Source: an uncultured bacterium (GTDB lineage Bacteria > Sysuimicrobiota > Sysuimicrobiia > Sysuimicrobiales > Sysuimicrobiaceae). Taken from it: 64,000 nucleotides of DNA. Where the stretch lies: positions 119,072-183,071 of the forward strand of contig CAYTFH010000001.1 of the NCBI GenBank assembly GCA_964437095.1, given 5' to 3'. Shown one piece after another: positions 11,032 to 42,660 of this stretch. The notes beneath the pieces are model-generated. The model ran no database searches. It was not told where the DNA came from and saw only the letters and a program-made list of their open reading frames with translations. Numbering within the stretch: position 1 is the first letter of the stretch; every line of letters starts with the position of its first letter. The position numbers were made by a program, and so were the translations under genes.

Positions 11032-12762
11032 TCATCCGCCCTCCCGGGCGAGCCGGACCAAGCCGGCGGCCAGGCCGTCCAGCAAGGCCTCCCACGACGC
11101 CCGCGGCACCTCGTCCCACCCGGGGAGCTCACACCAGGCCCGCTCGCGGGACGGCTCCTTAGGCCTGCCCACCAGCACCGTGCGGTGCGCGGGGTGCTGG
11201 AAGCCTTCCACCACCACCACGTCCGGTGCGGCTACGCCGTCCGGCCGGCACAGGGCCACCGCCTCCTGCAACGTCAGCGGGTGGTCGGGGAAGGCCCGTA
11301 CCGCCGCCTCCGCGTCACCGGCCAGGACCACGGCGGCAGCACCCGCCCGAGCCGCCCGCTCGCTGTCGCTGCCCTCGCGGTCCAGCTGGAACCCGTGGGG
11401 GGCGTGCTTCACTACCCCCACCTTCAGGCCCAGATCCCTCAGCCTGCGCACCAGTCCCTCCACCACCGCGGTCTTGCCCGCCCCCGACTCTCCCACCACG
11501 CCCACCACCAGGGGTGCCGGACAGGCGTCCGGGATCTCCAGAGCGTCGCCGGTCTCTGGGTGGTCCAGCAGCAGCGCGGGGACCCCGGAACCGGCCCGCA
11601 GGTACGGCGTTTTCGACTTCAGCAACAGCAGGGCCTGCGCCCGCGCCAGGCTTTCCAGCACGGGGCCCGACAACGGCTGTACCGCCATCCGGGAGCCCGC
11701 GGGGGCCAACGCGGCCCACACGGCCCGCATGCGGTCCGTGGCCGGCAACTCCCCTTGCAGGGGAACGACCACCAGGGGCCGCACCACGTGCCGCCGCCCG
11801 CCCAAGCGCAGCAGCAGCGGCCGCACCAACAGGTGATAGGCCGCAAGACACGCGGCGGGGCTGCCGGACAGCGCCACCGCCCACCGCCTGCCTACCACAC
11901 CGGCGAAGAAGGGGCCGCCGGGCTTGAGGTCCACGCGCCCGGCCACCTTCTCCGCCCCCAGGTCCAGCCACACCCTGGGAACCCGGTCGTAACGTCCCAC
12001 GGAAACCGCCCCGGTGGTCAGCACCACGTCGTAAGGACCGGCCAGAGCCCTGTGAAAGGCGGCCCGCAAGGCCTCGGGACGGTCCGGCAGGGTGCCCCCG
12101 TAGTCCACCTCGCAGCCGGCCCGGGAAAGCTCCGCGGCCAACGCGAACGCGTTGGTGTTGAACACGCGGCCCGGCGCCGGCGGTCCAGGGGGCTCGGTGA
12201 GCTCGTCCCCCGTGCAGAACAGCACCATCCGCGGCCTGCGGTACACCCGGAACTCGGACACACCCCCTGCGATCAGGGCCGCCACCGCTCCGGGGCTGAC
12301 GGCCTCACCCTCGCGCACGATGATGGCGCCCTCGGGTAGCTCCTCGTCCGGGCGTACCACGTGCCGCTTTCGAGGCGGTGCCTCCGCCAGCACCACCGCC
12401 GCGCCCTCCCGCCGCACCAGCTCCAGCGGCAGGACGCGGTCTCCCCGGAGGGGCATGGCGGCACCCGTGCTGATGACCCACGCTTCGCCGCGGCCGGGCC
12501 CCGCAGCAGGCGGCTTGCCGGGCCGGCACTCCCCGGTGACCACCAGGCGCACCGGGTTTTCCGAGGACGCCTGCCGCACGTCCTCGTGGTGGCACACGTA
12601 GCCGTCCATGGCGGCCCGCGGGAACCCCGGGGCGTTGCGGGTACTACGCACTTCCTCCGCGCTCACCCGGCCGGCCGCCTGCGCGGAGGGGACCCACTCC
12701 ACACCCACCGGCCGCGCGCGCTCCAGCAGGCTCCTGAGGACCTGTTCCACCGGCTCCGCCAT
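11032..12762 (-). CDS. moeA: molybdopterin molybdotransferase MoeA fused to MobB
   Basis: MoeA N-terminal and central domains. C-terminus has the P-loop GVVGESGAGKT and VVKH of MobB. SD AAGGAGGG + ATG. Confidence 0.8.
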   Translation of the reverse strand: MAEPVEQVLRSLLERARPVGVEWVPSAQAAGRVSAEEVRSTRNAPGFPRAAMDGYVCHHEDVRQASSENPVRLVVTGECRPGKPPAAGPGRGEAWVISTGAAMPLRGDRVLPLELVRREGAAVVLAEAPPRKRHVVRPDEELPEGAIIVREGEAVSPGAVAALIAGGVSEFRVYRRPRMVLFCTGDELTEPPGPPAPGRVFNTNAFALAAELSRAGCEVDYGGTLPDRPEALRAAFHRALAGPYDVVLTTGAVSVGRYDRVPRVWLDLGAEKVAGRVDLKPGGPFFAGVVGRRWAVALSGSPAACLAAYHLLVRPLLLRLGGRRHVVRPLVVVPLQGELPATDRMRAVWAALAPAGSRMAVQPLSGPVLESLARAQALLLLKSKTPYLRAGSGVPALLLDHPETGDALEIPDACPAPLVVGVVGESGAGKTAVVEGLVRRLRDLGLKVGVVKHAPHGFQLDREGSDSERAARAGAAAVVLAGDAEAAVRAFPDHPLTLQEAVALCRPDGVAAPDVVVVEGFQHPAHRTVLVGRPKEPSRERAWCELPGWDEVPRASWEALLDGLAAGLVRLAREGG

Positions 12763-12842
12763 CCCTCCTTAGCATGGCGCAACCCGGCCCCGGTTGTCCC
12801 GGGTTGCTGCAGCGCCGAAGTCCAGCGCACCATGGGGGCAGG

Positions 12843-13451
12843 TTGCGGCTGGCTGGGGTGGTCCTGGCAGGGGGCAAGAGCCGGCGCATGGGCACGGACA
12901 AGGCGGCCCTGCGCCTCGGTAACGTTAGCCTGCTGGAATGGGTGGTGGAGCGGGTCCAGGCCTGCTGCGACCCGGTGTTCGTGGTCGCCTCCCGGCCCGA
13001 CGCTTATCCAGATCTAAGGGTCCCGGTGTTGGTGGACCGGTGGCCGGGGCTGGGGCCTCTGGCGGGCCTAGATGCAGGCCTGCGCGCGTGCCCCGGGGAG
13101 TACGCGGTGGTGGTGGCCTGCGACCTGCCGTTCGTCAGGCCGGAGCTATTGTGCGGGCTCGCACAGGAGGCGCAGGGCATCGACGCCGCGGTCCCCGTCA
13201 CCGACCGGCCCCACCCGCTGTGCGCGGTGTACCACCGCCGGGCGGCGGACGCGGCGGAGTTGCTCCTCCGCGCGGGCGGAGGGTCCTTGCGCGACCTGCT
13301 GGACCGTCTGCAGGTGCGCTACGTTCCGGAGGCCGTGCTCCGCCGGTGGGATCCCCACCTGGACAGCCTGGTGAACGTGAACACCCCGCAGGACTACGCC
13401 CGGGCCCTGGCCCGGCTTCGGGCCGCGGGCGAACACCGCCGTTCTCCGTAA
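12843..13451 (+). CDS. mobA: molybdenum cofactor guanylyltransferase MobA (start uncertain: ATG 12774, TTG 12843 or GTG 12858)
   Basis: GVVLAGGKSRRMGTDKAAL...VVACDLPFV motifs. Confidence 0.65.
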   Translation: MRLAGVVLAGGKSRRMGTDKAALRLGNVSLLEWVVERVQACCDPVFVVASRPDAYPDLRVPVLVDRWPGLGPLAGLDAGLRACPGEYAVVVACDLPFVRPELLCGLAQEAQGIDAAVPVTDRPHPLCAVYHRRAADAAELLLRAGGGSLRDLLDRLQVRYVPEAVLRRWDPHLDSLVNVNTPQDYARALARLRAAGEHRRSP

Positions 13452-18527: not shown

Positions 18528-18932
18528 CTACGCTCCGGCCCGCGCCTGCGCGGCGTAAGCCCGGGCGCCCAGCTGCCGGAGGAGCTTGACCTCGTCCGCG
18601 AAGCCGTGGTTGAAGGCCACCACCCGCCCGTGGGGCCCCACCACCACCGTGGACGGGACGGTGAAGATCCCGAACCGCCGTGCCACGTGCGGCTGCTGCT
18701 CCACGTCCACCACCTCCACCCGCACCCCGGGGCCCGCCAGCTGGCGCAGCCGCTGGAGCGCGGGCAGCTGCTGGGTGCGGCAGGGCGCGCACAGCCGGTG
18801 GGTGAAGGCGATCACCGCGGGGCCTTCGGGAAGCCGCAGCCGCTGACGCAGCCGGCGGTCCCGCCACCGCACCCACCCCACGGCGGCCGCCACCGCCAAG
18901 GCCACCACCAGCAACGCCACCAGCCGGTCCAT
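18528..18932 (-). CDS. membrane-anchored thioredoxin-like protein (CAPC motif)
   Basis: N-terminal TM helix followed by AFTHRLCAPCRT; thioredoxin-fold length. Confidence 0.65.
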   Translation of the reverse strand: MDRLVALLVVALAVAAAVGWVRWRDRRLRQRLRLPEGPAVIAFTHRLCAPCRTQQLPALQRLRQLAGPGVRVEVVDVEQQPHVARRFGIFTVPSTVVVGPHGRVVAFNHGFADEVKLLRQLGARAYAAQARAGA

Positions 18933-18935
18933 TCG

Positions 18936-19382
18936 CTAGCCCCCGTGCGCGGATGGCCGGCGGATCAGGCCGCGGCGGGTGAGCTGGTAGAAGGCGAAGC
19001 AGCCCGCGCAGAAGCCGAACAGCAAGTTCACCGCGGCCAGCACCACCACCAGCCAGGCCAGCACCCAGCCGAGGACGGTGTACCCGCCCCACAGGCTCAC
19101 GGAGGCCAGCAGCAGGACGCTCCCCCCCAGGCCCTGGGCGAAGCGGTGCGGGGCCGGGTCGTCCTCGCGCTCATCGGGTTGCAACACCCGACCCTTGAGC
19201 CACCGGTGGTACACCTGCTGGAACAGGGCCAGGCGTGGGTCCGCGGTACCCGCCAGGAGCACCAGGGCCACCGCGGCCACCAGCCACCGCCAGTCCAGGA
19301 GGAAGGCCAGCACCGTGAACAGCACGATGCCCGCCTGGTTGGTCCGCAGGGCGTTGTGGTCTACCCGTCTCAAGCCCCTCAC
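18936..19382 (-). CDS. DUF4395 family membrane protein (C-terminal CxGC)
   Basis: Four TM helices, C-terminal FGFCAGCFAFY. Commonly paired with thioredoxin-like or rhodanese genes. Confidence 0.55.
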   Translation of the reverse strand: MRGLRRVDHNALRTNQAGIVLFTVLAFLLDWRWLVAAVALVLLAGTADPRLALFQQVYHRWLKGRVLQPDEREDDPAPHRFAQGLGGSVLLLASVSLWGGYTVLGWVLAWLVVVLAAVNLLFGFCAGCFAFYQLTRRGLIRRPSAHGG

Positions 19383-19386: not shown

Positions 19387-20250
19387 CTACGGCTTGGCGT
19401 CCACGGGTGCGGTGCGCTCGATGGGAGCCCCCACGAGGCTGCCCCACTCCGTCCAGCTGCCGTCGTAGTTCTTCACCTTCGGGTAGCCCAGCAGGTACCT
19501 CAGGGTGAACCACGTCAGGCTGCTGCGCTCCCCGATGCGGCAGTACGCGATCACGTCCTTGTCCGGCGTCACCCCATGCGACTCGTACAGCTGTCGCAGC
19601 TCCTCGGCAGGTTTGAACGTCCCGTCCTCCCGCACGTTCAACGTCCACGTGATGTTGCGGGCGCCCGGGATGTGCCCCGGCCGCTGGGCGCCTTCCTGAG
19701 GGTACGCGGGCGGGGCCAGGAGCTCGCCCGTGTACTCCTGCGGGGACCGCACGTCTACGAGAGCCAAGTTCGGGTCCTGCAGCCGCTGGAGGATCTCGTC
19801 CCGGAAGGCCCGCAGGGCGGGGTCAGGGTCCTTGGCCCGGAAGGTGGTGGGCGGGTACTGGGGTACGTCGGTGGCCAGGGGCCTTCCCTCCGCCACCCAC
19901 TTCTGCCGGCCGCCGTTCAGGATCTTCAGGTTCCCCACCCCGTAGTAGCTGAGCAGCCAGAAGGTGTACGTGGCGAACCAGTTGTTCTTATCCCCGTACA
20001 GGACGATGGTGTGCTCGTTGCCGATGCCCCGGGACCCCAGCAGGTGCTCCAGCTGCTCCCGGGAGATCCAGTCCCGCCGCACCGGGTCCTGCAGGTCCGT
20101 CTTCCAGCGGATGTGGATCGCACCCGGGATGTGTCCCTGGGCATACAGGTCCGGGTCCTCGTTGGACTCCACGATCCGCAGCCCCGGGTCCCCCAGGTGC
20201 TGCTCAAGCCACTGCGTCTCCACCAGCACGTCGGGGCGCGCGTAACCCAT
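19387..20250 (-). CDS. thiosulfate/3-mercaptopyruvate sulfurtransferase (tandem rhodanese)
   Basis: Two rhodanese domains; active-site [21 protein letters not shown] + ATG. Confidence 0.85.
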
Positions 20251-20532: not shown

Positions 20533-21282
20533 TCACCCGCCGCGGCCCGACACCAGCGCCACTAGCCCCAGGCACACGGTGGCGCCTGCCACCCAGCCCC
20601 GCAAGCGCGCGGAGCTCACCTCCCGTACGGTGCGGGTGCCCAGGGGGACTGCCAGCACCGCGCCGCCGGTCACCGCCAGCAACAGGTCCCACCTCCACGC
20701 ACCGGGGAACCACCACGCGTAGCTGGCCACGGCGGCTAGGGAAACCACGGCTTCCGCCAGGTTGGTGATGGCCACCGCGGCTTTGGGTTCAAGGCCCGAG
20801 ACGATCTGCCCGGCCGCGATGAGGGGGCCGTACCCGCCGCCCGTGAGTCCTTTGTTCACCGAGGCCAGGGCACCCAGGGCCACCAGCCGCCGCCACGAAA
20901 AGGCCCGGGCGGCGGGGCCCAGCAGCAGCCACACGCCCAGGGCCACGATCATGCCGGCCATGTAGGCCCGCACCGCACCTTCACCCACCTGCCGGGCCAG
21001 CCAGGGGCCGGCCAGGCCGCCCGCGAGGCCCGCGGCCACCAGCACCGCGGCGACCCGGCAGTGCGCGGAGTCCCGGCTGAAGGAGGCGTTGCCGTTCGCG
21101 TGGTGGAACCGGGCGCCCACCAGGCCCGCCATTACCTGGGAGAGGAGGAGGGCAGGGACCACCTCGGGGAGCCGGTAGCCCGCGGCCAGCAACAGCGGGC
21201 CCAGGACCGTGCCGTAGCCCATCCCCAGGGCCGTGTCCAGAAACCCCGCGGCGAACGCCAGGCCCACCAGCACCAACAGCAC
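20533..21282 (-). CDS. TauE/SafE-family sulfite/anion exporter
   Basis: Eight TM helices with the two-fold repeat typical of TauE; SD GGTGAGGGAGGAG + GTG. Confidence 0.7.
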   Translation of the reverse strand: MLLVLVGLAFAAGFLDTALGMGYGTVLGPLLLAAGYRLPEVVPALLLSQVMAGLVGARFHHANGNASFSRDSAHCRVAAVLVAAGLAGGLAGPWLARQVGEGAVRAYMAGMIVALGVWLLLGPAARAFSWRRLVALGALASVNKGLTGGGYGPLIAAGQIVSGLEPKAAVAITNLAEAVVSLAAVASYAWWFPGAWRWDLLLAVTGGAVLAVPLGTRTVREVSSARLRGWVAGATVCLGLVALVSGRGG

Positions 21283-21295: not shown

Positions 21296-22048
21296 TCACC
21301 GCACGCCCTCCGCAGCGCGCACCGATGCCGTCTGGTCGCACAGGTCCACCACCCGTCCCACCACCAGCGTGGCGGGGGGTTCGAGCTGTGCTTCGGCCAC
21401 CCGGGGCGCGATGGTGCGCAGCGTCCCTACCACTACCCGCTGGTCCGGCAACGTCCCCCGGGAGATCACGGCCGCGGGCAGGTCCGGGTCGGCTCCTGCC
21501 TCCACCAGCTGCGCCACCACGTAGGCCAGCCGCCGCAGGCCCATGAGCACCACCAGGGTGGGCATGCGCGCCAGGACCGGCCAGTCCACCGCGGGGGAGA
21601 GGTCGCACGACTGGCCCGTGACCACCGCGAAGGCGGAGGCGTACGCCCGGTGGGTCACGGGGATCTCCGCGGACGCGGGGACCGCCACCGCCGCGGTGAC
21701 CCCGGGGATCACCTCGTACGGTACGCCCGCAGCCCGCAGGGCCTCCACCTCCTCACCACCACGGCCGAACACGAAGGGATCGCCTCCCTTCAGCCGCACC
21801 ACGCGGAGGCCGCGGCGGGCCCGGTCCACCAAGAGCCGCACGATCTCTTCCTGGGGAGTGCGGGGGCCGGAAGGGTGCTTGCCCGCGAAGATCCTCTCGG
21901 CCCGGACGGGTGCTTCTGCCACCAACGCAGGGTGCACGAGCCGGTCGTACACCACCACGTCGGCGGTCCGCACCGCCCGGAGTCCCCGCACGGTGATAAG
22001 CTCGGGGTCTCCGGGCCCCGCACCCACCAGGAACACCTTGCCCGTCAC
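21296..22048 (-). CDS. cobA: uroporphyrinogen-III C-methyltransferase (SUMT)
   Basis: GKVFLVGAGPGDPELIT...LKGGDPFVFGRGGEE; GTG overlaps the sirC stop. Confidence 0.85.
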   Translation of the reverse strand: MTGKVFLVGAGPGDPELITVRGLRAVRTADVVVYDRLVHPALVAEAPVRAERIFAGKHPSGPRTPQEEIVRLLVDRARRGLRVVRLKGGDPFVFGRGGEEVEALRAAGVPYEVIPGVTAAVAVPASAEIPVTHRAYASAFAVVTGQSCDLSPAVDWPVLARMPTLVVLMGLRRLAYVVAQLVEAGADPDLPAAVISRGTLPDQRVVVGTLRTIAPRVAEAQLEPPATLVVGRVVDLCDQTASVRAAEGVR

Positions 22049-22674
22049 GCCTCCTCCGCCAGCTCCGCGACCCGCTGCCGAGCCCGGTCCACGTGTCCCG
22101 CCCGCAGATCGTCCAGGACGCCGGAGTCCAAGATCCGGTACCACAGCGCCCGGCGGCGGTTGAAGTCCGGCACCCGGCGGGCCAGCTGCTCCCGGACCTC
22201 ACCCGCCAGCTCCAGGAAGGCCGCGTGCTCCGGGCCCAGCTGGGCCGCGAACCGGTCCCGGAGCCGCACCGCGAGAGCCGGCGCCTTGCCCGAGGTGCAC
22301 ACGGCCACCACGAGGTCCCCGTCCCGGTGCACCGCTGGCGCGATGAAGCTACAGTGCGCGGGGTCGTCCACGGCGTTGACCCAGATCCGCCGCTGCTGCG
22401 CTTCCTGCCACACCGCGTGGTTGGTCTTTCGGTCCTCGGGTGCGGAGATGACCAGCCACGCGCCCTCCAGGTCGCCTGGGCGGTACGGGCGGGACAGCCA
22501 CTGCAGCTTGCCCTCTGCGGCCCACGCCCGCAGCCGTTCGGTCACCTGACCGCTCACCACCACCACCTCCGCCCCGCACTCCAGCAGGGCTGCTACCTTG
22601 GCTTCCGCCACCGGGCCGCCGCCCACCACCACGCACCGCCGGACGCGCAGGTCCACGAACAGCGGGTAGTACAC
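22045..22674 (-). CDS. sirC: precorrin-2 dehydrogenase / sirohydrochlorin ferrochelatase
   Basis: YYPLFVDLRVRRCVVVGGGPVAEAKV Rossmann N-terminus typical of CysG-N/SirC. Confidence 0.75.
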   Translation of the reverse strand: MYYPLFVDLRVRRCVVVGGGPVAEAKVAALLECGAEVVVVSGQVTERLRAWAAEGKLQWLSRPYRPGDLEGAWLVISAPEDRKTNHAVWQEAQQRRIWVNAVDDPAHCSFIAPAVHRDGDLVVAVCTSGKAPALAVRLRDRFAAQLGPEHAAFLELAGEVREQLARRVPDFNRRRALWYRILDSGVLDDLRAGHVDRARQRVAELAEEA

Positions 22675-22684
22675 GGCTAGACCA

Positions 22685-22721
22685 CCCCAACAATCGCTCA
22701 AGCGATCTTTGGGGACCCCGG
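22685..22721. repeat. 37-nt palindromic repeat element, copy 2 (intergenic hemD-sirC)
   Basis: CCCCAACAATCGC-TCAA-GCGATCTTTGGGGACCCCGG; near-identical to the element inside the FMN reductase gene. Confidence 0.6.
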
Positions 22722-22756
22722 TCCCTTCAGCCGCCAGGGTCTTCCCGCACACGCTC

Positions 22757-23563
22757 CTACTCCCGGGCCCTGACCTGGTAGGCTCGCAGGGCATCCACCA
22801 GGGGAGCCATCTTCGGGTGGTCCGGGCTCACCGCCACCCGCACCCCACAGGCCTCCACGGCCGCGCGGCTTGTGGGCCCCACCGCGGCCACCACCACTCT
22901 CGTGTTGAGGGCCTCCCGCAGCGCTGCCGTGAGCCCCTCGTGTTCGGCCACCGCGAACAGGTGCAGGACCTGGGGCCGGCTGGTGACCAGCAGCGCGTCC
23001 ACTCGTCCTTCCACCACCGCGTGCGCGGCTCGCCCCAGGGGGCCGACGTCCTGGGGGAGCGCCCACCGGTACGGAAGCGCCTCCACCGCCTCGGCGCCGC
23101 GGCGGGCCAGGTAGTCCCGCAGGGCCGGGTTGGGCTCCCCGTAGTGCTGCACCAACACCCGCCGGCCCTCCAGCGGGACCGTGTCCAGGGCGCGGCACAG
23201 CTCCGCGGTGGTGTGGGGGCTGGGTGCCTGCACCTGCGGCCGCACGCCCCAGCGGCCCAGCACCGCCACCGGCTTGGGGCCCCGCACGGCCACGGGGATC
23301 TCCCGCAGAGCCTGGACGAAGGCTTCACCCAAGCCCAAGGTCACCGCGGCCTCGTACAGCCGCTGCACCCCCACGCCCGTGAGGAACACCGCCCAGTCCA
23401 CCTCCCGGGAGCACAGGCGCTGCAGGGGCTGAGCCACTTCGGACGCCGGCACCGCCACCTCCTCCACCGCGGGCGCGCACACGGGCTCCCAGCCCTGCTG
23501 CCGCACCAGGTCCGCCAGGACCTGCGGCCAGCGCGACTCCAGGACCAGCACCGTCCAGCTCAC
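22757..23563 (-). CDS. hemD: uroporphyrinogen-III synthase
   Basis: HemD-like two-lobe sequence; GTG overlaps the cysC stop (GTGA). Confidence 0.7.
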   Translation of the reverse strand: MSWTVLVLESRWPQVLADLVRQQGWEPVCAPAVEEVAVPASEVAQPLQRLCSREVDWAVFLTGVGVQRLYEAAVTLGLGEAFVQALREIPVAVRGPKPVAVLGRWGVRPQVQAPSPHTTAELCRALDTVPLEGRRVLVQHYGEPNPALRDYLARRGAEAVEALPYRWALPQDVGPLGRAAHAVVEGRVDALLVTSRPQVLHLFAVAEHEGLTAALREALNTRVVVAAVGPTSRAAVEACGVRVAVSPDHPKMAPLVDALRAYQVRARE

Positions 23564-24576
23564 GCCTCTCCCGAGCCCGCCTGCACGTACCCGCGCTCCG
23601 CGAGCAACCGGAGGACCTGCGCCGCACCCTCCTCGGGCGCGGTGCGGTGGGTGTCCACCACCAAGTCGGGGGACTCGGGCTCCTCGTACGGGTCGCTCAC
23701 CCCGGTGAAGTTGGGCACCTCGCCCCGCAGGGCGCGGGCGTACAGCCCCTTGGGGTCCCGCTGGACCAGGACCTCCAGGGGGCATCGCACGTACACCTCC
23801 AGGAAGTCGCCCACCAGCTCCCGCGCCTGCGCCCGTGCCTCCCGGTATGGGGAGATGAGGGCGACCAGGACCACCACGCCGTGGCGCACCAGCAGCCCCG
23901 CCACGTACGCCACCCGCCGCACGTTCTCCAGCCGGTCCTCCCGGGAGAACCCCAAGCCCTTCGAGAAGTGGCGGCGGACTTCGTCGCCGTCCAGCACCTC
24001 CACCGGCACGCCCTGGCCGCGGAGGGCCTCCGCCACCCGGTGCGCCAGGGTACTCTTGCCCGCTCCGGAAAGCCCCGTGAGCCACACGCACACCCCGCGC
24101 GCGGCCCGGGGACTCCCCTCCGTGGACAGGCTCTCCACCTCCACCCCGTCCGCCCGCGCCGCGAGGGTGACCACCAGGCCGTCTGCCCGCAGCGCCACGG
24201 TGTAGTCGCCGAGGGTGCGGGCAGCCACCCGCACTCCCTCCAGCCGGCGGCCGCGCAAGGCCTGCAGGGCGCGGTTGGTGGCTTCCAGCCTCGCCCGCAG
24301 CGCCTGGCCCCGCGGCGTGTGCCACAGCACCTCCGTGAGCAGCCGCTCACCCTCCGCCCGGTGCCGGCGCCGCGCGCGGCCGGTCTGCAGGGAAAGGGCC
24401 ACCGCGGACTCCACCACGTCCACGAACTCCGTCGCGAGCTCCCCGCGGCGGACGAGCTCCGCCGCTTGCACCGCGCGCTGCTGCTGTGGGTCGGGGAGGA
24501 CCTGGGCCAACGCCAGGACCTCCTCCGCCACCAGCGCCGCGGACTCCGGGTCCAGCTGCAAGGGCAACTCCGTCAC
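23560..24576 (-). CDS. cysC: adenylylsulfate kinase with ~150-aa N-terminal extension of unknown function
   Basis: C-terminal 190 aa: VWLTGLSGAGKST...DGDEVR...SPYREAR APS kinase. GTG at 24576 overlaps the cysH TGA (GTGA). Confidence 0.75.
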   Translation of the reverse strand: MTELPLQLDPESAALVAEEVLALAQVLPDPQQQRAVQAAELVRRGELATEFVDVVESAVALSLQTGRARRRHRAEGERLLTEVLWHTPRGQALRARLEATNRALQALRGRRLEGVRVAARTLGDYTVALRADGLVVTLAARADGVEVESLSTEGSPRAARGVCVWLTGLSGAGKSTLAHRVAEALRGQGVPVEVLDGDEVRRHFSKGLGFSREDRLENVRRVAYVAGLLVRHGVVVLVALISPYREARAQARELVGDFLEVYVRCPLEVLVQRDPKGLYARALRGEVPNFTGVSDPYEEPESPDLVVDTHRTAPEEGAAQVLRLLAERGYVQAGSGEA

Positions 24577-25370
24577 CGCCGGACCTCCTCCACGGCGTGC
24601 CCCAGGATGGCGTGCGCCTCGTGCTCGAACCCACCGGTCTCGATGGGGCAGTGGATGCCGCACTCCTTGGGCGCGCCCACCTCCCACCACCACCGGCCCG
24701 CGCGGTCGTCCTCGCCGGGCTGGATGGGGCGCGTGCACGGGTCGCACCCGATGCTGGTGTACCCGTGCTCGTACAGGGGGTGGGTGGGGACCCCGTGGGT
24801 GCGCAGGTACTCCCACACCTCCTCCTTGGTCCAGTCCGCCAAGGGGTTGGCCTTGACAATGCCGTCGTGGTCGTGGTCCAGCTCCACCTTGCGGATGTTG
24901 GCCCGCGACGCCCACTGCTCCCGGCGCAGGCCCGTGATCCACGCGTCCAGCTGTTCCAGGCCGCGCACCAGGGGCCGGACCTTCCGGACCTGGCAGCACA
25001 GCAGCCGCAGGGGCACGGACTTGTAGAACAGGTTCACCCCGTGCCGCTGGACCATGGCCTCCACCTCCCGGTGGTCCGGGAACAGCACCTGGAAGCGTGC
25101 GTGGGGGTAGTGCTCCCGCACCTGGTCCAGGAAGGCGTAGGTGGCCTGGGGCAGCCGTCCGGTGTCCACGGTGAGCACCCGGACGTCCGGGCGGATCCGG
25201 GTGGCCATGTCCAGGATGGCCATCCCTTCCGCCTGCAAGGCGGTCACCACCGCCACTCGGTCGCCGAAGGTGTCCAGGGCCCAGGCGATGACCTCCTGGG
25301 GCTCCCGGTCATCGAGCTCCACCGCGATCTCGCCGATCTCCAGGTCGTCGAACACCACCGTCCGCGCCAT
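24573..25370 (-). CDS. cysH: phosphoadenosine phosphosulfate / APS reductase (thioredoxin-dependent, C-terminal Cys cluster)
   Basis: PAPS_reduct fold, C-terminal CC...ECGIHC cluster; strong SD GGAGGAGGGAGG + ATG. Confidence 0.85.
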   Translation of the reverse strand: MARTVVFDDLEIGEIAVELDDREPQEVIAWALDTFGDRVAVVTALQAEGMAILDMATRIRPDVRVLTVDTGRLPQATYAFLDQVREHYPHARFQVLFPDHREVEAMVQRHGVNLFYKSVPLRLLCCQVRKVRPLVRGLEQLDAWITGLRREQWASRANIRKVELDHDHDGIVKANPLADWTKEEVWEYLRTHGVPTHPLYEHGYTSIGCDPCTRPIQPGEDDRAGRWWWEVGAPKECGIHCPIETGGFEHEAHAILGHAVEEVRR

Positions 25371-25435: not shown

Positions 25436-27358
25436 CTAGCCCGCGCCTCCCGACAGGGCGGGCAGGATGGTGAGTTCCTCGCCGGGCCGCAGGGGCGCGT
25501 CCAGGCCTCCTAGGCCCCGCACGTCCTCCTCGCCCACGAACAGGTTGATGCTGGGGTGCACGCCGCCGTCCGGCGCCAGCACGTGGGCCACCAGCTCCGG
25601 GTACTGTCGCCTGAGCGCCTCCAGAGCCTCCCGCACCGTGCGGGCGTCCACCTCCACCCGGTCCGCGCCCCCGCTGTAGGGCAGCAGCATGCCGGGGATT
25701 CGCACCACCGGGCGGCGCGGCGTCTCCTCTTCCCGTACCGCCTCGCCCAGGGCCAGGGCCCGCAGCTGGTCGTCCGTGCGGGCGTCCACGAAGTCCCGGA
25801 AGGTGCAGCCACCCTCCCGCTGCGCCCGCTCCCGCAGCCAGCCCTCCACCAGCCGGCAGACCACCTCCGTGATCCGGTCCTCCGGGATGCGGCGCAAAAG
25901 GGGCTTCCCGATGGCGGCCCGGGTGCCCAACCCGCCTCGCAGGCACACGTCGTAGGCCTCCACCCGCACGCCCTTCTCCGGGTGCACCACGGTGGTGCCC
26001 TGCAGGCCGATGTCCCCCACCCAGTGGTGGGCGCAGGCGTGGGGGCAGCCGTCGGTGTAGATCCGCAGGTCCGCCACCGCTTCCCCGAAGCGCCGCTCGA
26101 GCTCCTCCAGGATCTCCTTGAGCTTGCCCTTGGTCTCCGCCACGGAGTAGTTGCAGAACCGGTGGTCGGTGCACGCGGTGGATCGGCCGTACACCGGGTT
26201 GCGGGAGGGGTCCAGCCCCATGCGGGCGAGCTCCCGGCGCACCTCCTGCACCCGCTCCTCGGGAACCCCCGTGACGATGAGGTTCTGCATGCGGGTGAAC
26301 CGCACGTCCCCTCCGAAGGACCCCACCAGCTCCCCCAGGGCCACCAGCTGGCCACCCGTGATCCAGCCCATGGGCACGGGCACGCCCACGTACACCAGCC
26401 CCGGCTGCTTCTGCGGGTGCACGCCCAAATGGTCGGTGTCGTGGGTGGGCTCCGGCGCACGGCCATCCGCCAGCCGCCGGCCCAGGCGGGCTTCCACCCG
26501 AGCCCGTACGCCCTCGGGGCCGTAGTCGTCCACCATGAACTTGATGCGGGCCTTGGCGCGGCTGAGGCGGTAGCGCAGGTCGTCCTGCCACGTATCCGTC
26601 ACCGCCCGCAGCACCTCCACCACGCCCTCCACGGGCTCTGCGGGCACGAACACCCCCAGATCCCGGCTCAGGCGGGGCGTGGCGGAAAGCCCCCCGCCCA
26701 CCCGCACCGCGAACCCGGGGACCCCGTCCAGCACCACGCCCACCAGGGCCACGTCGTGGATCTCCGGAGCGTTGCACTGGGCGGGGCAGGCGCTGATGGT
26801 GTACTTGTGCTTGCGGGGGAGGTTGCTGTAGGCGCGGTTGCCGTAGAAGAACCGCGCCACCGCTTCTACCACGGGCCGCACGTCGAACAGCTCCGCCCGG
26901 TCCACGCCCGCCACCGGGCAGCTGGTCACGTTGCGTACCGTATCCCCTTCCCCGCCCACGGTGGTGAGTCCCGTGGCCTGCACCGCGGCCAGCACCTCCG
27001 GCAGCTGCTCCAGCCGGACCCAGTGGAGCTGAATCCCCTGGCGGGTGGTGAGCTCGCCGTAGTTGCGCCCGTACCGCCGGGCGATCTCGCCCACCCCTAC
27101 CAGCTGCGCCGGGGTAATGCGGCCTCCGGGCACCTTGATGCGCACCATGAAGGTCCCCACCTTGGGCTTGTCGTGGGTGAGGCCCCACCAGTTGAGGCGC
27201 ACGATGTCCTCCTCCGGGATGGCCTCATACCCCCGCGCGATGAGGCTTGGGAGCTCGTCCACGATGTCCAGGGGGAACTTCTCCTGCTTGAGCCGCTCGA
27301 TGGAGTTCCGCTTCAGCACCAACTCCCAGGTGGGCTCCAAGGTCACCGTCTGTGCCAT
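25436..27358 (-). CDS. sir: ferredoxin-dependent sulfite reductase (NirA/SirA type) fused to C-terminal CysO/MoaD-like sulfur-carrier domain (ends ...SGGAG)
   Basis: Two NIR_SIR ferredoxin-like and 4Fe-4S/siroheme domains (TDGCPHACAHH). Final ~88 aa RIPGMLLPYSGGADRVEV...SINLFVGEEDVRGLGGLDAPLRPGEELTILPALSGG+AG resemble M. tuberculosis CysO. Confidence 0.8.
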   Translation of the reverse strand: MAQTVTLEPTWELVLKRNSIERLKQEKFPLDIVDELPSLIARGYEAIPEEDIVRLNWWGLTHDKPKVGTFMVRIKVPGGRITPAQLVGVGEIARRYGRNYGELTTRQGIQLHWVRLEQLPEVLAAVQATGLTTVGGEGDTVRNVTSCPVAGVDRAELFDVRPVVEAVARFFYGNRAYSNLPRKHKYTISACPAQCNAPEIHDVALVGVVLDGVPGFAVRVGGGLSATPRLSRDLGVFVPAEPVEGVVEVLRAVTDTWQDDLRYRLSRAKARIKFMVDDYGPEGVRARVEARLGRRLADGRAPEPTHDTDHLGVHPQKQPGLVYVGVPVPMGWITGGQLVALGELVGSFGGDVRFTRMQNLIVTGVPEERVQEVRRELARMGLDPSRNPVYGRSTACTDHRFCNYSVAETKGKLKEILEELERRFGEAVADLRIYTDGCPHACAHHWVGDIGLQGTTVVHPEKGVRVEAYDVCLRGGLGTRAAIGKPLLRRIPEDRITEVVCRLVEGWLRERAQREGGCTFRDFVDARTDDQLRALALGEAVREEETPRRPVVRIPGMLLPYSGGADRVEVDARTVREALEALRRQYPELVAHVLAPDGGVHPSINLFVGEEDVRGLGGLDAPLRPGEELTILPALSGGAG

Positions 27359-27373: not shown

Positions 27374-28534
27374 TCAGCCGGCCTGCTCCGCGGGCGGGGC
27401 CGCGAAGTACGTCCGCAACACCTCCGCCACCTCGGGCCGCATCACCTGTGGGGGCGGCAGCTGGCCGCTTCGCAGGAGCTTGCGCACCCAGGTCCCGCTG
27501 GGGTTCACCCGCGCGTCCGCGGGGTGAGGGCAGCTGCGCTCGGTGGCCATGCCGTCGCACCGGCGGCAGTAGAACGCCTCCCCGAAGAACACCGGGGTAA
27601 TCCCCAGTTCGGCCGCGTCGAAGCGGTCGAAGATGCGGTGCGCCGCGTACGGGTCGTAGAACCCGCCCACGCCCGCGTGGTCCCGCCCGATGAGGATGTG
27701 GGTGCACCCGTAGTTCTTGCGGACCACCGCGTGGAACACCGCCTCCCGCGGCCCCGCGTAGCGCATGGCGGCGGGGAACACCGCCAGGAGCACGCGGTCC
27801 TTGGGGTAGTACAGGTCCACCAACACCTCGTACGCCCGCATGCGCACGTCCGCGGGCACGTCGTCCTTTTTGGTCTCCCCCACCAGGGGGTGCAGGAACA
27901 GCCCGTCCGTGGTCTCCAGGGCGACCTTGTGCAGGTACTCGTGGGCGCGGTGGATGGGGTTACGGGTCTGGAAGGCCGTCACCGTCCGCCACCCGGCCCG
28001 CTGGAACCGCTCCCGGGTCTGGGCTGGGTCCAGCTCCCGGTCCGCCCACGGACCCCGGGGCCGGTCCACCAGCCACACCGGCCCCGCCACGGCCCACGGG
28101 GACTCCTGCAGGAGCCGCGCCACGCCCGGGTGCGCAGGGTCCGTGGTGCCGAACACCCATTGCGCTTCCTCTTCCAGGTCCCGCCGGTAGACCTCCGTGA
28201 CCTCCACCACCGCCAGAAGACCCTGCCCCCGCACGGCCAGCCGGTCCCCGCGGCCGAGCTGCCGCGCGCGGTCCGCGGGCAGCTGCAGGGTCACGGGGAT
28301 GGTCCACGGCAGGCCTCCAGGCAGCCGCAGGGTGTACAGCACCGACCGGTACGTCTCCCGGTCCATGAAGCCCTCGAGCGGACTGTACGCACCGGTGGCC
28401 AGCAGGACCGCGTCCGCGGCCTCCTTGGCGCTGGTCAGCACGCACGGCAGCCGTTGCGCTTCCGCTCTCCATGCGTCCGCTTGTTTGCCATCCACCACCC
28501 GGTGCACCAAGCGACCCCCGTGGGGTGCGACCAT
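27374..28534 (-). CDS. sat: sulfate adenylyltransferase (ATP sulfurylase)
   Basis: QTRNPIHRAHE and GRDHAGVG motifs; SD GGGAGGTG + ATG. Confidence 0.9.
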   Translation of the reverse strand: MVAPHGGRLVHRVVDGKQADAWRAEAQRLPCVLTSAKEAADAVLLATGAYSPLEGFMDRETYRSVLYTLRLPGGLPWTIPVTLQLPADRARQLGRGDRLAVRGQGLLAVVEVTEVYRRDLEEEAQWVFGTTDPAHPGVARLLQESPWAVAGPVWLVDRPRGPWADRELDPAQTRERFQRAGWRTVTAFQTRNPIHRAHEYLHKVALETTDGLFLHPLVGETKKDDVPADVRMRAYEVLVDLYYPKDRVLLAVFPAAMRYAGPREAVFHAVVRKNYGCTHILIGRDHAGVGGFYDPYAAHRIFDRFDAAELGITPVFFGEAFYCRRCDGMATERSCPHPADARVNPSGTWVRKLLRSGQLPPPQVMRPEVAEVLRTYFAAPPAEQAG

Positions 28535-28725
28535 AGCACACCTCCCACGCGCTCGCCCATGCGCTGCGCGGCGCGTCGTTCGTCTTGGAACCTTGGCTAG
28601 GGAAAAACCGGAAGCCGCGGAAGGAGCCCCGCCCGGTTCAGGCCAGGGCTACCTCCCGCCGAGGACAGATGCACTGCCGAGGGCGGGCCAGCAGGAGCGG
28701 ACGTACGACTCCGGACTCCATGGCT

Positions 28726-28754
28726 TCGCGTGACACTTTAGCCCCGCGGACGTG
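28726..28754 (-). promoter_or_regulatory. sigma-A-like promoter TTGACG-N17-TAAAGT upstream of the sat operon (~190-nt leader)
   Basis: Read on the minus strand. Leader 28535-28719 contains a GGTTTTTCC tract after GC-rich sequence. Confidence 0.4.
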
Positions 28755-29086
28755 GCGCGTCAAGAGGGGAGGCGTCGGTCCGCGAAAGCACTTCAGCCCG
28801 CGGACCGCACAGCCCGGGCCCAGTCCCGCAGCGCGGCCAGCAACTCCCGCACCCGGGCGCGGGTGGCCTCGTCCACCAGGCGCCCCTGCGCGTCGAACTT
28901 GTCCCGGGCGTGGGTAACCAGGACCTCCGGACGGTGCAGCTGCCGGGCCTCCAGCGACGCCAGCACCTGCCGCAGGTGCAGCTGCGCCCGCAGCGTGCCC
29001 CAGGCCCCCATCGTTCGGAGCACATCCGGCCATCCCCCGCGCCCACGGGGACCGGCGTCGGACGTCGTACGACTTCTCCCTGCAAA

Positions 29087-29136
29087 CCGGGGTCCCCAAA
29101 AATCGCGCCAGCGATTTTTGGGGCGCTCTAGCGCCC
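29087..29136. repeat. palindromic repeat element, copy 1 (inside the FMN reductase gene)
   Basis: CCGGGGTCCCCAAAAATCGC-GCCA-GCGATTTTTGGGG plus adjacent GGGCGCTCTAGCGCCC palindrome; AT-rich core. Confidence 0.6.
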
Positions 29137-29566
29137 ATCACCGCCACGGGCTTGCCCCGGAAGGGGTTGTCCCCCGCGGGGCGGGTGGCCCAGTCCAGCG
29201 CGTTCTTCAGCACCCCCGGGAAGGACCAGTTGTACTCCGGGGTGACCACCAGCACCGCGTCCGCGTCGCGGATTTCGCGCTTGAAGGCCACCACCGCCTC
29301 CGGGAGCCCTCGCTGCTCCACGTCCCCGTCGTACAGGGGGATGCCCCTCAGGTCGAAGGCCACCACCTCCACGTCTTCGGGGGCCACCTCCGCCGCCGCC
29401 CGCAGCAAGGCGCGGTTGTAGGATCCCTCCCGCAGGCTGCCCGCGAACCCCAAGATCTTCACTGATCCCTCACGCACGCGTGCCCCCTTCCGATTCGGGT
29501 TTACGGCGCAGCAGTGTACGCGGCTCCGCCGGGCGCGTCAAACCCTCTTGACAATTCCACGAGCTC

Positions 29567-29727: not shown

Positions 29728-31608
29728 ATGGCCGAAAACAGCTCGGCGCCCAACTTCGTGGAAAGCCTCAAGGCCGCCCGGGACGGGCTGGACGTGGGCG
29801 AGGACATCCCCCGCTACGCGCGTCTGGGCTGGCAGGCCATCCCCAAGGACGACGTGGAGCGGCTCAAGTGGTGGGGGGTCTTCCTCCGCCGCCAGAGCGA
29901 GGGGGAACCCGGGTACTTCATGCTCCGGATCCGCATCCCCAACGGTATCGCCACCGCCGCCCAGGCCCGGGAGATGGGCCGCCTCAGCCGCGACCTGGGT
30001 CGCGGGGTGCTGGACGTCACCACCCGGCAGCAGGTGCAGATGCGGTGGATCCGTATGGAGAACGTCCCGGAGGTCCTGGACCGGCTGCGGGGGGCGGGTC
30101 TCACGACCCTTCAGACGGGCATGGACAACGTGCGCAACGTGGTGGGCTGCCCCCTCGCAGGGCTGCTGTCCACCGAGCTCCTGGACGCCTCCCCGGTGGT
30201 GCGGGAGCTCACCGCTCGCATCGTGGGGAACCGCGCCTACACCAACCTGCCCCGGAAGTTCAACGTGACCGTCACCGGCTGCGTGCAGAACTGCACCCAC
30301 GCGGAGACCCAGGACCTCGCCCTGGTGCCCGCCACGCGATCCCACCGCGGGTACCGTCAGGTGGGGTTCAACGTCCTCGTGGGCGGCAAGATGGGCTCCG
30401 GCGGATACCGCGTGGCCTCCCCCTTGGACGTCTTCGTCACCGAGGGAGAGGCCGTGGAGCTGTGCGTGGCCGTGGTGGAGGTCTTCCGGGACTGGGGGCC
30501 GAGGGAAGCTCGCGGCCGGGCCCGCTTGAGCTTCCTGCTGGACGCCTGGGGGGTCAACCGGTTCCGGGAAGCCGTCCAGAGGCGCCTGGGCCGTCCCCTG
30601 CTACCGGCCGGGGAAGACGCCCGTCGACCCGCTGCGTGCGACCACCTGGGCGTGATCCGGCAGAAGGAGCCCGGGCTGTACGCGGTGGGCCTGCTGGTCC
30701 CCGTGGGCCGGCTCAGGGCTGAGCAGCTGCTGGAGCTAGCGCGCCTGGCGGAGGTGTACGGAGCGGGAGAAGTCCGGTTCACCACAGGCCAGAACGTGGT
30801 GCTGCCCCACGTGCCCGAAAGCCAGCTGCAGCGGCTCTTGGAAGAACCCCTGCTGCGCGAGCTCCGGCCCGACCCTCCGCCCGCGCTGCGCGGGCTGGTG
30901 AGCTGCACCGGCACGGACTACTGCAACTTGGCCCTGATCGACACCAAACGGCGTGCCCTGGACTTGAGCCGGAAGCTGGAACCCCGAATCCACCGCCCCG
31001 TCACCGTGCACTGGTCGGGATGTCCCGCGGGCTGCGGCAACCACGGGGTGGCGGACGTGGGGCTGGTGGGCAAGAGGGTCCGGGTGGACGGCCGGGTGGT
31101 GGAGGCGGTGGACGTGTACGTGGGCGGCTGTTCTGGCCCCGAGCCGCTGCCTGCCTTGAAGCTCCTGGAGGACGTGCCGTGCGACGCCCTGGAGCCCATC
31201 CTGGAGGCCCTGATGCGGTACGGCGACTTCGAGGGGCTGCGCGCGCAGCTGCGGGCCTGGCTCCCGGGAAAACTTCTTCGATCAGGGCCCGCACCGCTTC
31301 GCGGCCCCACCGTCCCCGTATCGGAGCTCCCCGACGGGAAGGGAGTCCGGGTGCGCCTGGGGGGCGAGGAGGTGGCGGTGTTCCGATGCAACGGGACGGT
31401 GTACGCGGTGCAGGACCGTTGCCCCCACGCCGGAGCCTCCCTGGCCGAAGGCGTGGTGGACGGTACGGAGGTGATCTGTCCCGAGCACGGCTACCGCTTC
31501 TGTCTGCGCACCGGGCGCGGGCTCACGGACCCGAGCCTCTCCGTCCGGACCTTTTTCGTGCGACGGGAAGGGGAAGCCGTGGTGGTGGAAGAGTCGGAGG
31601 AGGGTTGA
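29728..31608 (+). CDS. nirA: ferredoxin-nitrite reductase fused to C-terminal Rieske-type NirD small-subunit domain
   Basis: NIR_SIR domains and siroheme/4Fe-4S Cys (SCTGTDYC, SGCPAGC). C-terminal CPHAGASLAEG...CPEHGYRF Rieske motif. SD GGAAAGGAGG + ATG. Confidence 0.85.
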   Translation: MAENSSAPNFVESLKAARDGLDVGEDIPRYARLGWQAIPKDDVERLKWWGVFLRRQSEGEPGYFMLRIRIPNGIATAAQAREMGRLSRDLGRGVLDVTTRQQVQMRWIRMENVPEVLDRLRGAGLTTLQTGMDNVRNVVGCPLAGLLSTELLDASPVVRELTARIVGNRAYTNLPRKFNVTVTGCVQNCTHAETQDLALVPATRSHRGYRQVGFNVLVGGKMGSGGYRVASPLDVFVTEGEAVELCVAVVEVFRDWGPREARGRARLSFLLDAWGVNRFREAVQRRLGRPLLPAGEDARRPAACDHLGVIRQKEPGLYAVGLLVPVGRLRAEQLLELARLAEVYGAGEVRFTTGQNVVLPHVPESQLQRLLEEPLLRELRPDPPPALRGLVSCTGTDYCNLALIDTKRRALDLSRKLEPRIHRPVTVHWSGCPAGCGNHGVADVGLVGKRVRVDGRVVEAVDVYVGGCSGPEPLPALKLLEDVPCDALEPILEALMRYGDFEGLRAQLRAWLPGKLLRSGPAPLRGPTVPVSELPDGKGVRVRLGGEEVAVFRCNGTVYAVQDRCPHAGASLAEGVVDGTEVICPEHGYRFCLRTGRGLTDPSLSVRTFFVRREGEAVVVEESEEG

Positions 31609-41964: not shown

Positions 41965-42660
41965 CTAGTGCAGGTCGTCCAGGCCGCTGCGCCGCATCAG
42001 CCTGCGGAACTCGCGCCGGCGCCGCCAGCGCCGGTAGGCGGCCCAAGGGTCGGGAAGGCGTACGGCGCGCGGACCGCGGAACCCGTAGCGGCCCCCGGAA
42101 GCGTACCACCAGGCCACCCCGCAGCCCGCCAGGGCGAAGACACCCAGGGGGAAGGGGAACGAGAAGAACACCAAAGCCGCGGCCAGCCAGCCCATCCACC
42201 GACCCTCCACGGGGACGGCGAAGTACACCAGGAGCCGCTGCCCCGGGTGGATCACCGACCACGCCACCGCGCACGCGGCCACGGGCAGCCACAGGCCCGA
42301 AAGTCCCGAGTCACGCCCCACCAGGCCCTGTGCCACCCACAGGCTCAAGGCCGGCGCGGGTGTGGTCAACAGCAGGAACCGGACGTAGTCGCGAACCAGC
42401 CAGGCTCGCTCCAGGCTCCCCCCGAACAGCCACAGGGCGTAGCTGGACAGGAGCAGGGACACCACCGAGCCGCTTCCGTCCAGGGCGTACGTGAGCACGG
42501 TCCACGGCCACCTGGGGAAGGCGTACGAGAAGAACGCGAGCGGCAGGGGAAACCCGAGGAAGGAGGCGAGGAAGGTCCCCGCGTTGGCCGCCATCAGCCC
42601 CCACGTCACCGGGCAATTGCCGGGCAAGGATGCCCACCCCCTCCAGGTGAAGCCCCTCAT
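41965..42660 (-). CDS. rhomboid-family intramembrane serine protease
   Basis: Six TM helices; GLSGL (GxSG) active-site Ser, downstream His in a TM segment. Confidence 0.65.
   Translation of the reverse strand: MRGFTWRGWASLPGNCPVTWGLMAANAGTFLASFLGFPLPLAFFSYAFPRWPWTVLTYALDGSGSVVSLLLSSYALWLFGGSLERAWLVRDYVRFLLLTTPAPALSLWVAQGLVGRDSGLSGLWLPVAACAVAWSVIHPGQRLLVYFAVPVEGRWMGWLAAALVFFSFPFPLGVFALAGCGVAWWYASGGRYGFRGPRAVRLPDPWAAYRRWRRRREFRRLMRRSGLDDLH

Follow-up and report, generated by a model that had tools for sequence, protein, structure and literature searches.

The 64,000-nt stretch of contig CAYTFH010000001.1 analysed here, called the window in the following, stems from an uncultured bacterium of the family Sysuimicrobiaceae and encodes a protein in which a sulfite reductase continues at its C-terminus into a small sulfur-carrier domain. 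We read this protein as a ferredoxin-type assimilatory sulfite reductase with a tethered carrier of the CysO class, which would capture sulfide as a thiocarboxylate for the synthesis of cysteine or homocysteine—a reading to which we give a probability of roughly 60%. This reading builds on what was observed: the architecture, a carrier fold with an invariant Gly-Gly, flexibility of linker and tail, the operon, and the conservation across phyla. The G+C content of the window is ~72%, and its nearest species-level relatives are hot-spring metagenome-assembled genomes of Candidatus Sysuimicrobiota, part of which are deposited as Armatimonadota.

One polypeptide for reductase and carrier

A single uninterrupted open reading frame (ORF) on the minus strand, 25436-27358, encodes 640 residues, and its translation in the ORF listing ends in ...TILPALSGGAG. 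The overall layout is that of a four-domain siroheme/[4Fe-4S] enzyme of the sulfite/nitrite reductase type, followed by a disordered linker of ~13 residues and an 88-residue domain ending Gly-Gly-Ala-Gly. Its parts, and a paralogue that bears on its substrate, are as follows (pLDDT, predicted local distance difference test):

25748..27358, minus strand: catalytic part of the reductase, residues 1-537, NIR_SIR_ferr/NIR_SIR twice (Pfam)
25709..25747, minus strand: flexible linker, residues ~538-550 (EAVREEETPRRP), block mean pLDDT 64
25445..25708, minus strand: CysO/MoaD-like β-grasp sulfur-carrier domain, residues 551-638 (Pfam ThiS, profile, and fold)
25439..25444, minus strand: Ala-Gly tail after the Gly-Gly, with the stop codon at 25436-25438 (read from the sequence)
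29728-31608, plus strand: NirA-type paralogue of 626 residues ending in a Rieske [2Fe-2S] domain, followed by a formate/nitrite transporter (span to 32431) and divergent from the sulfate operon

Pfam finds two copies each of NIR_SIR (E = 1.4e-47) and NIR_SIR_ferr (E = 7.2e-42) in the 640-residue protein, and the cysteines ligating siroheme and the [4Fe-4S] cluster—C396, C402, C438, and C442, spaced as C-x5-C...C-x3-C—are invariant across 50 homologues. The AlphaFold2 model of the full-length protein has a pLDDT of 87.6 and a predicted template modelling score of 0.83, with values below 50 at residues 541-543 in the linker and 635-640 in the tail, which is hence predicted to be disordered. As judged by Foldseek on this model, the closest structure to the N-terminal 540 residues is NirA/SirA of Mycobacterium tuberculosis (1zj8; template modelling (TM) score 0.88). 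The residues of the Tyr69-Cys161 cross-link of that NirA are not kept in the fused reductase, where the aligned positions are a gap/Thr and Glu137.

Sulfite is favoured as the substrate by context, the sequence models alone not being decisive: the top NCBIfam matches are nitrite reductase models (341 against a cut-off of 594), the 'sir' model reaches 125 against 731, and all matches lie below their equivalog cut-offs. The context consists of sat upstream, cysH and cysC downstream, and the separate NirA-Rieske paralogue beside a nitrite/formate transporter. This paralogue is probably an assimilatory nitrite reductase with a built-in NirD-like domain. Nitrite reduction would thereby be accounted for, which favours a reading of the fused enzyme as the sulfite reductase.

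For the C-terminal domain, Pfam ThiS (PF02597) matches residues 565-638, ending two residues short of the stop, with 34.6 bits against a gathering cut-off of 22.5; the last 94 residues alone match it at E = 6.3e-9. The NCBIfam models of SAMP1 and archaeal MoaD match below threshold, and both matches likewise end at residue 638. A profile built from the final 125 residues of 31 diverse homologues was searched against the PDB chains. It finds CysO of Amycolatopsis as the best match (4n6e_B, E = 1.6e-21) and CysO of M. tuberculosis (3dwg_C, E = 2.9e-19), both over their full length, as well as a MoaD-related protein of Thermus (1v8c, E = 2.7e-14). Chains deposited as MoaD reach E-values of only 4.7e-3 (1vjk) and 0.88 (3rpf), and no ThiS chain was found at E ≤ 1 in this search.

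The fold follows the same order. In Foldseek comparisons, the C-terminal domain of the full-length model superposes on CysO with TM scores of 0.88-0.91 and root-mean-square deviations of 1.3-2.3 Å, the best superpositions being those on 3dwm_A (TM 0.90-0.91, 1.3 Å) and 4n6e_B (TM 0.90-0.91). A model of the carrier domain alone (pLDDT 86.7) gives TM scores of 0.89-0.91 to CysO and 0.66-0.76 to MoaD. These comparisons place the domain in the CysO/MetO clade, nearest to the carriers of thiocarboxylate-dependent cysteine and methionine pathways, rather than with MoaD or ThiS.

An initial annotation, made by a model from the sequence, had already recognised a C-terminal CysO/MoaD-like domain, and this assignment holds: ThiS scores above gathering, the profile reaches CysO of M. 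tuberculosis at E = 3e-19, and the HMM (hidden Markov model) search and structure prediction that it had proposed find a β-grasp fold at TM ~0.9 to CysO. The same annotation described the match to M. tuberculosis CysO as almost motif for motif. The three motif blocks that it quoted do align, but the phrase is generous for the domain as a whole, which is 34% identical over 90 residues (E = 7e-18) in the pairwise comparison.

The homologues were taken as the 120 best matches in a collection of 5.8 billion proteins (NCBI, JGI, ENA, and Logan sources). Of these, 119—62-100% identical and 597-753 residues long—are the same continuous fusion, which answers the survey suggested by the initial annotation; the exception, P0069, runs on into a 3'-phosphoadenosine 5'-phosphosulfate (PAPS) reductase domain. 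The non-identical fused relatives are 62-89% identical to the window protein and come from at least seven phyla: Armatimonadota/Sysuimicrobiota, Acidobacteriota (Pyrinomonas), Tectimicrobiota, Chloroflexota (including Dehalococcoidia and Ardenticatenia), Actinomycetota (Acidimicrobiales, Egibacteraceae, Nitriliruptorales, and Euzebyales), and Gemmatimonadota (Longimicrobiales), together with Fervidibacter, the latter two having come up in other searches than that for the 120 best matches. At least one cultured organism, Pyrinomonas methylaliphatogenes, carries the fusion. Databases label many of these proteins 'MoaD/ThiS family protein' (NCBI) or 'sulfite reductase beta subunit-like hemoprotein/molybdopterin converting factor small subunit' (JGI). 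An identity of 62-89% between phyla is unusually high and suggests horizontal spread of a module of fused sir-cysO and cysH.

The initial annotation had named one weak point of the fusion, namely, a stop codon that would part sir from an independent cysO gene and was lost by an assembly or gene-calling artefact. This explanation is practically impossible. The 640-residue protein recurs in identical form on contigs of two further sequencing runs and assemblies, and, beside the 119 homologues, a scan of one genome per species with a query from a seven-sequence alignment returned 27 loci with an uninterrupted fused reading frame. A separate carrier translated from an internal start was considered as well and rejected: the junction reads GAGGAG and then GTG GTG in the window, whereas GTC, CTC, CTG, CAG, or ATC stand there in other lineages, which do not conserve the purine-rich (Shine-Dalgarno) motif either.

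The end of the carrier is its most constant part. As read directly at the C-terminus, and as the initial annotation had stated, the window protein bears two extra residues after its Gly-Gly. Gly637-Gly638 is invariant in all 119 fused homologues, whereas the tail behind it comprises no residue in 74 of them, one in 4, and two in 41; its first residue is Ala (35), Cys (7), Ser (2), or Gly (2), and its second is freely variable. The ten closest relatives (87-89% identical) all have two-residue tails of differing sequence, and the next group (82-85%) has none. The linker, too, differs between homologues in length and sequence. Judged from this alignment, the Gly-Gly is under selection while linker and tail vary. 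The toggling between no and two residues among ~85% identical relatives and the Ala/Cys/Ser/Gly preference at the first position make the tail look like a short cleaved propeptide, which would fit a JAMM-type processing. Since Ala-Gly follows the Gly-Gly in the window protein, exposing the latter would require processing.

A sulfate-assimilation operon with a constant neighbour

The fused gene lies in a row of minus-strand genes that are close-packed or overlapping (APS, adenosine 5'-phosphosulfate):

28763-28735: promoter-like site, a consensus match only
27374..28534, minus strand: sat, ATP sulfurylase of 386 residues (Pfam PUA_2 and ATP-sulfurylase, E = 7.7e-96), which opens the operon 15 nt ahead of sir
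24573..25370, minus strand: cysH, APS/PAPS reductase with Fe-S-type CC...CxxC and ECGIH motifs (Pfam PAPS_reduct)
24112..24576, minus strand: domain of an unannotated ~157-residue family, N-terminal half (~160 residues) of the 'cysC' ORF, fused to APS kinase
23560..24081, minus strand: APS kinase (CysC) domain, C-terminal half of the ORF 23560-24576 (Pfam APS_kinase)
22757-23563, minus strand: hemD, siroheme supply (Pfam HEM4)
22045-22752, minus strand: sirC/cysG-N, siroheme supply (Pfam NAD_binding_7/CysG_dimeriser)
21296-22048, minus strand: cobA, siroheme supply (Pfam TP_methylase)
20533-21282, minus strand: TauE-family permease (Pfam)
19387-20250, minus strand: two-domain rhodanese with a CRIGERS active site (Pfam)
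18936-19373, minus strand: DUF4395 membrane protein with a CAGC motif (Pfam)
18528-18932, minus strand: membrane-anchored thioredoxin-like protein with a CAPC motif (Pfam)

Pfam thus bears out the order sat-sir-cysH-cysC given by the initial annotation. Judged by its gene content, the operon would provide both the sulfite and the siroheme for the fused enzyme, which we count in favour of the proposed sulfide capture. No riboswitch or other known RNA element was found in the window with Rfam at gathering thresholds.

The genes that stay with the fusion elsewhere are few. In 33 of 33 related loci, the gene immediately after the fused sir is cysH, and behind it follows a family that the initial annotation had missed. 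In the window, this ~157-residue family forms the N-terminal half of the APS kinase ORF and is 42-54% identical to stand-alone proteins of 155-173 residues from four other phyla. A family HMM finds it after cysH in all 24 fused species loci whose contigs are long enough and in none of 53 loci with a stand-alone cysO. It also follows cysH in six further fused loci from five phyla, which amounts to at least six phyla overall, and Fervidibacter sacchari encodes a linked member.

Members of the family comprise 155-175 residues (e.g., L083:12779-13246, L084:12864-13385, L086:12762-13238, L087:3240-3713, and L088:5233-5721) and share the motifs RAR..AEGE..T, P.G, N.AL, and R(T).G..T; no Cys, His, or Asp is invariant in the alignment. 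The family has no relative in Pfam, NCBIfam, or the PDB, the profile searches yielding nothing beyond sub-threshold noise. Doublecortin, the noise match that recurred most often (10 of 37 members, best E = 0.003), was below threshold as well and was rejected as its identity. One locus, L089, shows the arrangement cysH-(~157-residue gene)-cysC without an adjacent sir; therefore, the family is tied to cysH no less closely than to the fusion.

A second link that the initial annotation had passed over leads from the far end of the operon to stand-alone cysO clusters. The DUF4395 and thioredoxin-like genes of the window are homologous (E = 1e-31 and 1.6e-14) to a pair that lies between mec (JAB) and cysO in cysM-mec-cysO-moeZ clusters of Anaerolineae; ~20 such clusters of Chloroflexota carry the pair at this position. 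One Anaerolineales locus carries, in this order, cysM (PALP), JAB peptidase, DUF4395, thioredoxin-like gene, cysO, and moeZ (ThiF and rhodanese). A homologue of the rhodanese is found in four such clusters (L055 and L065 of Anaerolineae, L067 of Aggregatilineales, and L073 of Anaerolineaceae). These shared genes suggest an independent though indirect tie of the operon to thiocarboxylate systems; the trio of rhodanese, DUF4395, and thioredoxin-like protein could equally be a thiosulfate-utilisation module. In the full-text literature searched, DUF4395 turns up in just two papers, once in each.

Some further genes of the window were recorded in passing. An ORF of 279 residues (28638-29477, minus strand) encodes an NADPH-dependent FMN reductase, in which FMN_red covers only profile positions 1-116 of 152 while the remainder is unmatched; a 72-residue ORF without a Pfam match (28793-29011) overlaps the 3' half of this ORF in another frame. 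The FMN reductase gene appears frameshifted and could be a pseudogene or the product of an assembly error. A DsrE/DsrF-like protein is encoded near three ORFs that have no Pfam match and show a strong coding signature with a third-position G+C of 0.88-0.92, one of them being 417 residues long (the group spans 3349-3708 (plus), 4250-5122 (minus), 7422-8438 (plus), and 8717-9970 (plus)). Finally, a MoeA-MobB fusion protein (576 residues, minus strand) lies beside a divergent MobA-like gene at 11032-13451, 12-14 kb from the fused reductase; MoaD, MoaE, and MoeB are absent from the window.

The proposed sulfur transfer and its competitors

In the proposed scheme, each chemical step and each partner is modelled on the CysO, HcyS, and MetO precedents. 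Sat and CysH would produce sulfite, which the siroheme enzyme would reduce to sulfide. A JAMM-type peptidase encoded elsewhere would cut off the Ala-Gly tail of the carrier, and a MoeZ/MoeB-type E1, also encoded elsewhere, would adenylate the exposed Gly-Gly carboxylate. Sulfide from the adjacent active site could then attack the acyl-adenylate and form the protein thiocarboxylate, and a pyridoxal phosphate (PLP)-dependent sulfhydrylase of the CysM, MetY, or MetM type would draw on it for the synthesis of cysteine or homocysteine. The JAMM peptidase would finally free the amino acid and regenerate the carrier. Hereby, the fusion would increase the local sulfide concentration at the carrier and curb the loss or oxidation of free sulfide, which would plausibly benefit the aerobic, often thermophilic host lineages. 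Burns and co-workers are said to have made the CysO thiocarboxylate in vitro in 2005 with MoeZ, ATP, and sulfide, and Krishnamoorthy and Begley reportedly proposed in 2011 a sulfite reductase as the sulfide source for the free carrier HcyS of Wolinella.

The partner enzymes were searched with profile HMMs built from 34 JAB and 38 ThiF-rhodanese proteins, plus CysM, in six-frame ORFs (at least 50-60 residues, E < 1), and additionally by single-seed phmmer. Several results of these and other analyses weigh against the proposed scheme. In the window, no six-frame ORF matches JAB, ThiF, or a CysM-type PALP enzyme at E < 1; the sole match is the rhodanese gene, which corresponds to the rhodanese part of MoeZ. 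In the surroundings of the 27 fused loci, up to 10 kb away, the profile HMMs find no JAB or ThiF gene either, and a CysM-like gene occurs near only one of them (L023, 8.5 kb away). The Pfam tables of the six further fused neighbourhoods list no ThiF-type E1, JAB/JAMM, or CysM-type enzyme. The initial annotation had noted the missing E1 and JAMM genes for the window, and the same thus holds near all these loci. In contrast, about 30 of the 53 stand-alone carrier loci, mostly of Chloroflexota, have the CysM, JAB, and E1 genes all adjacent. The MetY-like gene of the window (43582-45216) lies 16 kb from the fusion in an unrelated neighbourhood and is unlinked to it; the initial annotation was right about this gene and its distance, but the accompanying 'ACT protein' (42657-43397) is a CoA_binding_2 protein according to Pfam.

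Two unusual proteins and the literature add to these points. P0069 (925 residues) is a natural triple fusion of sulfite reductase, CysO, and CysH, in which the Gly-Gly is internal and followed by a linker of ~25 residues, so that only processing would give the carrier a free C-terminus. This layout implies either a proteolytic release or a role of the carrier for which no free C-terminus is required. P0330 (879 residues) has its carrier match at residues 537-624, which suggests the same architecture. Moreover, no mass-spectrometric, enzymatic, or other biochemical study of any fused protein was found in the full-text literature searched.

Since the partner genes are absent from the window and from the fused neighbourhoods, the pathway would depend on unlinked genes. 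In one Acidimicrobiales genome with the fusion (L084), a threonine-synthase-like (MetM-like) PLP enzyme and a free 91-residue ThiS-family (MetO-like) protein are encoded 9 kb upstream of the fused sir (L084:1-809). Fused and free carriers hence coexist in one genome, and we take this putative MetM/MetO pair as a point for the proposed scheme. Among the stand-alone carrier loci, 11 of actinobacteria pair the carrier with a threonine-synthase-like gene, an arrangement that, by gene content, resembles the MetM-MetO homocysteine route. A pathway of MetM, MetO, Mec, and MoeZ has been described (10.1101/2024.10.14.618325), and the MetM-MetO homocysteine route is listed in GapMind 2026. The same carrier clade also comprises carriers that are N-terminally fused to a MoeZ-like E1 and tandem double CysO proteins (L055:9875-11506, L065:9890-11629, L080:9920-11512, P0244, and P0247).

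Because no partner genes are consistently linked to the fusion, three other readings stay in play. The first accepts a true thiocarboxylate carrier charged with the sulfide of the reductase, but sends the sulfur elsewhere: to molybdopterin, tRNA thiolation, a thio-cofactor, or a protected sulfide buffer. For such a destination speak the absence of a conserved CysM, MetY, or MetM gene near the fusion, the MoeA-MobB and MobA genes of the window, and two of the structural matches—CysO of Amycolatopsis, which is recruited with BexX for thiosugar biosynthesis, and the MoaD-related Thermus protein. Nevertheless, the carrier sits in an operon for bulk sulfate assimilation, while cofactor pathways need sulfur only in traces; it is much nearer to CysO than to chains deposited as MoaD; and the fused neighbourhoods examined contain no MoaE, TtuA, or ThiG partner. 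We regard this reading as unlikely.

The second reading holds that the β-grasp domain is never charged and is a structural, regulatory, or docking module, which might gate the substrate channel, bind CysH or the ~157-residue protein, or help ferredoxin to dock, its Gly-Gly then being inherited. E1 and JAMM were not found near any fused gene, and the only neighbours kept in every fused locus examined are cysH and the gene of the ~157-residue protein, which are not thiocarboxylate enzymes; the internal Gly-Gly of the triple fusion points the same way. However, it is difficult to see why a terminal Gly-Gly should be invariant in at least seven phyla, beside a tail that varies freely, if neither chemistry nor processing took place at this site, and the tail is predicted to be disordered instead of docked. 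The missing nearby E1 says little here, since the E1 of the M. tuberculosis carrier (MoeZR) is reported to be unlinked from cysO as well. Such a purely structural role is, hence, rather improbable in our view.

The third reading takes the carrier as a swinging arm within a complex of CysH and sulfite reductase, possibly joined by the ~157-residue protein; it would pass sulfur intermediates from one enzyme to the other, with an activation that might not need a classical ThiF-type E1. A known parallel to such an arm is DsrC, whose flexible C-terminal arm enters the channel of the siroheme sulfite reductase DsrAB and takes up the reduced sulfur. The strict conservation of the module of fused sir-cysO, cysH, and the ~157-residue gene would suit this idea, as would the natural fusion of reductase, CysO, and CysH in P0069. 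In addition, CysH has the adenine-nucleotide α-hydrolase fold, whose member TtuA works with ThiS-like carriers (5gha is among the fold matches), and the structural relatives of the reductase part include the DsrAB-DsrC complex 2v4j. All of this is circumstantial, though. CysH retains ECGIH, the canonical catalytic motif of an APS reductase that depends on thioredoxin; the invariant residues of the ~157-residue protein include no Cys, His, or Asp as a pointer to catalysis; and an E1-independent formation of a thiocarboxylate has no known precedent; we therefore consider the swinging arm a long shot. The same must be said of its boldest form, in which the module would be a self-contained machine: the carrier would shuttle sulfur among APS reductase, sulfite reductase, and a downstream acceptor, its charging would need no ThiF-type E1 encoded nearby and perhaps none at all, and assimilatory sulfate reduction would gain a new component in the ~157-residue protein.

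Known systems and biological meaning

The fusion as such is not new. Iyer, Burroughs and Aravind described fusions of sulfite reductase with ThiS/MoaD in Nocardioides and Acidothermus cellulolyticus in 2006 (Genome Biol 7:R60, PMC1779556) and inferred that sulfur derived from sulfate ends up on the carrier—the same conclusion as ours, and we count it in support. Both their fusions and the one in the window have the carrier at the C-terminus of a sulfite reductase and PAPS reductase, ATP sulfurylase, and APS kinase as neighbours. Their class 4e operons are reported with JAB, E1-like, and SirA/CCD1 genes, whereas JAB and E1 are absent from the window and the 27 fused loci, as far as a comparison with the published description goes. 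In the Pfam tables of the window or the fused loci examined, no TusA/SirA-like match is listed, a search aimed at SirA/CCD1 not having been made. The window and the surveyed loci hence differ from the published examples in having no clustered E1 or JAB by HMM search and no SirA in their Pfam tables. With the architecture and the inferred sulfur transfer published in 2006 and the fusion annotated in databases, the initial annotation overstated its novelty; what the window adds is a new lineage of an uncharacterised architecture.

The CysO-CysM-Mec+-MoeZ system of M. tuberculosis (3dwg, 3dwm) is another close relative: the carrier of the window is 34% identical to its CysO, superposes at TM 0.9, and shares the Gly-Gly end, and the reductase part is closest to 1zj8. 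CysO of M. tuberculosis is, however, a free protein of 93 residues, while the carrier of the window is fused to the reductase and has no cysM or mec neighbours; in M. tuberculosis, cysO is encoded beside both. For Wolinella succinogenes, Krishnamoorthy and Begley (cited in PMC5764234) reportedly described in 2011 a methionine pathway of HcyS, HcyD, HcyF, and MetY, in which a thiocarboxylate is the sulfur donor to a PLP sulfhydrylase. An extra residue after the Gly-Gly of HcyS is said to be removed by a JAMM peptidase, and the cluster is said to include genes for sulfite reductase and sulfate activation. Unlike the carrier of the window, HcyS is not fused, and its gene is clustered with those for E1, JAMM, and MetY; none of these is clustered with the fusion in the window, where the only MetY-like gene lies 16 kb away. 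The Anaerolineae-type cysM-mec(JAB)-[DUF4395-thioredoxin]-cysO-moeZ clusters contain homologues of the carrier as well as of the DUF4395 and thioredoxin-like accessory genes of the window. Unlike the window, they have a free-standing carrier flanked by all three partner enzymes and no sulfite reductase. The likeness to DsrC is conceptual only, as its fold is unrelated, its sulfur is carried on cysteines, and it is not fused to the reductase.

Since the architecture was already known in 2006, the window brings a modest practical gain. Two refinements are added nevertheless: the classical partner genes are consistently absent nearby, and an unannotated protein consistently follows cysH. The fusion is a useful handle on how protein-thiocarboxylate carriers obtain their sulfide in vivo, whereas in vitro work adds free sulfide. 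A carrier that is covalently attached to sulfite reductase across at least seven phyla is strong comparative-genomic evidence that sulfide is taken straight from the reductase, and the fusion offers a convenient single-polypeptide system for testing such a direct uptake.

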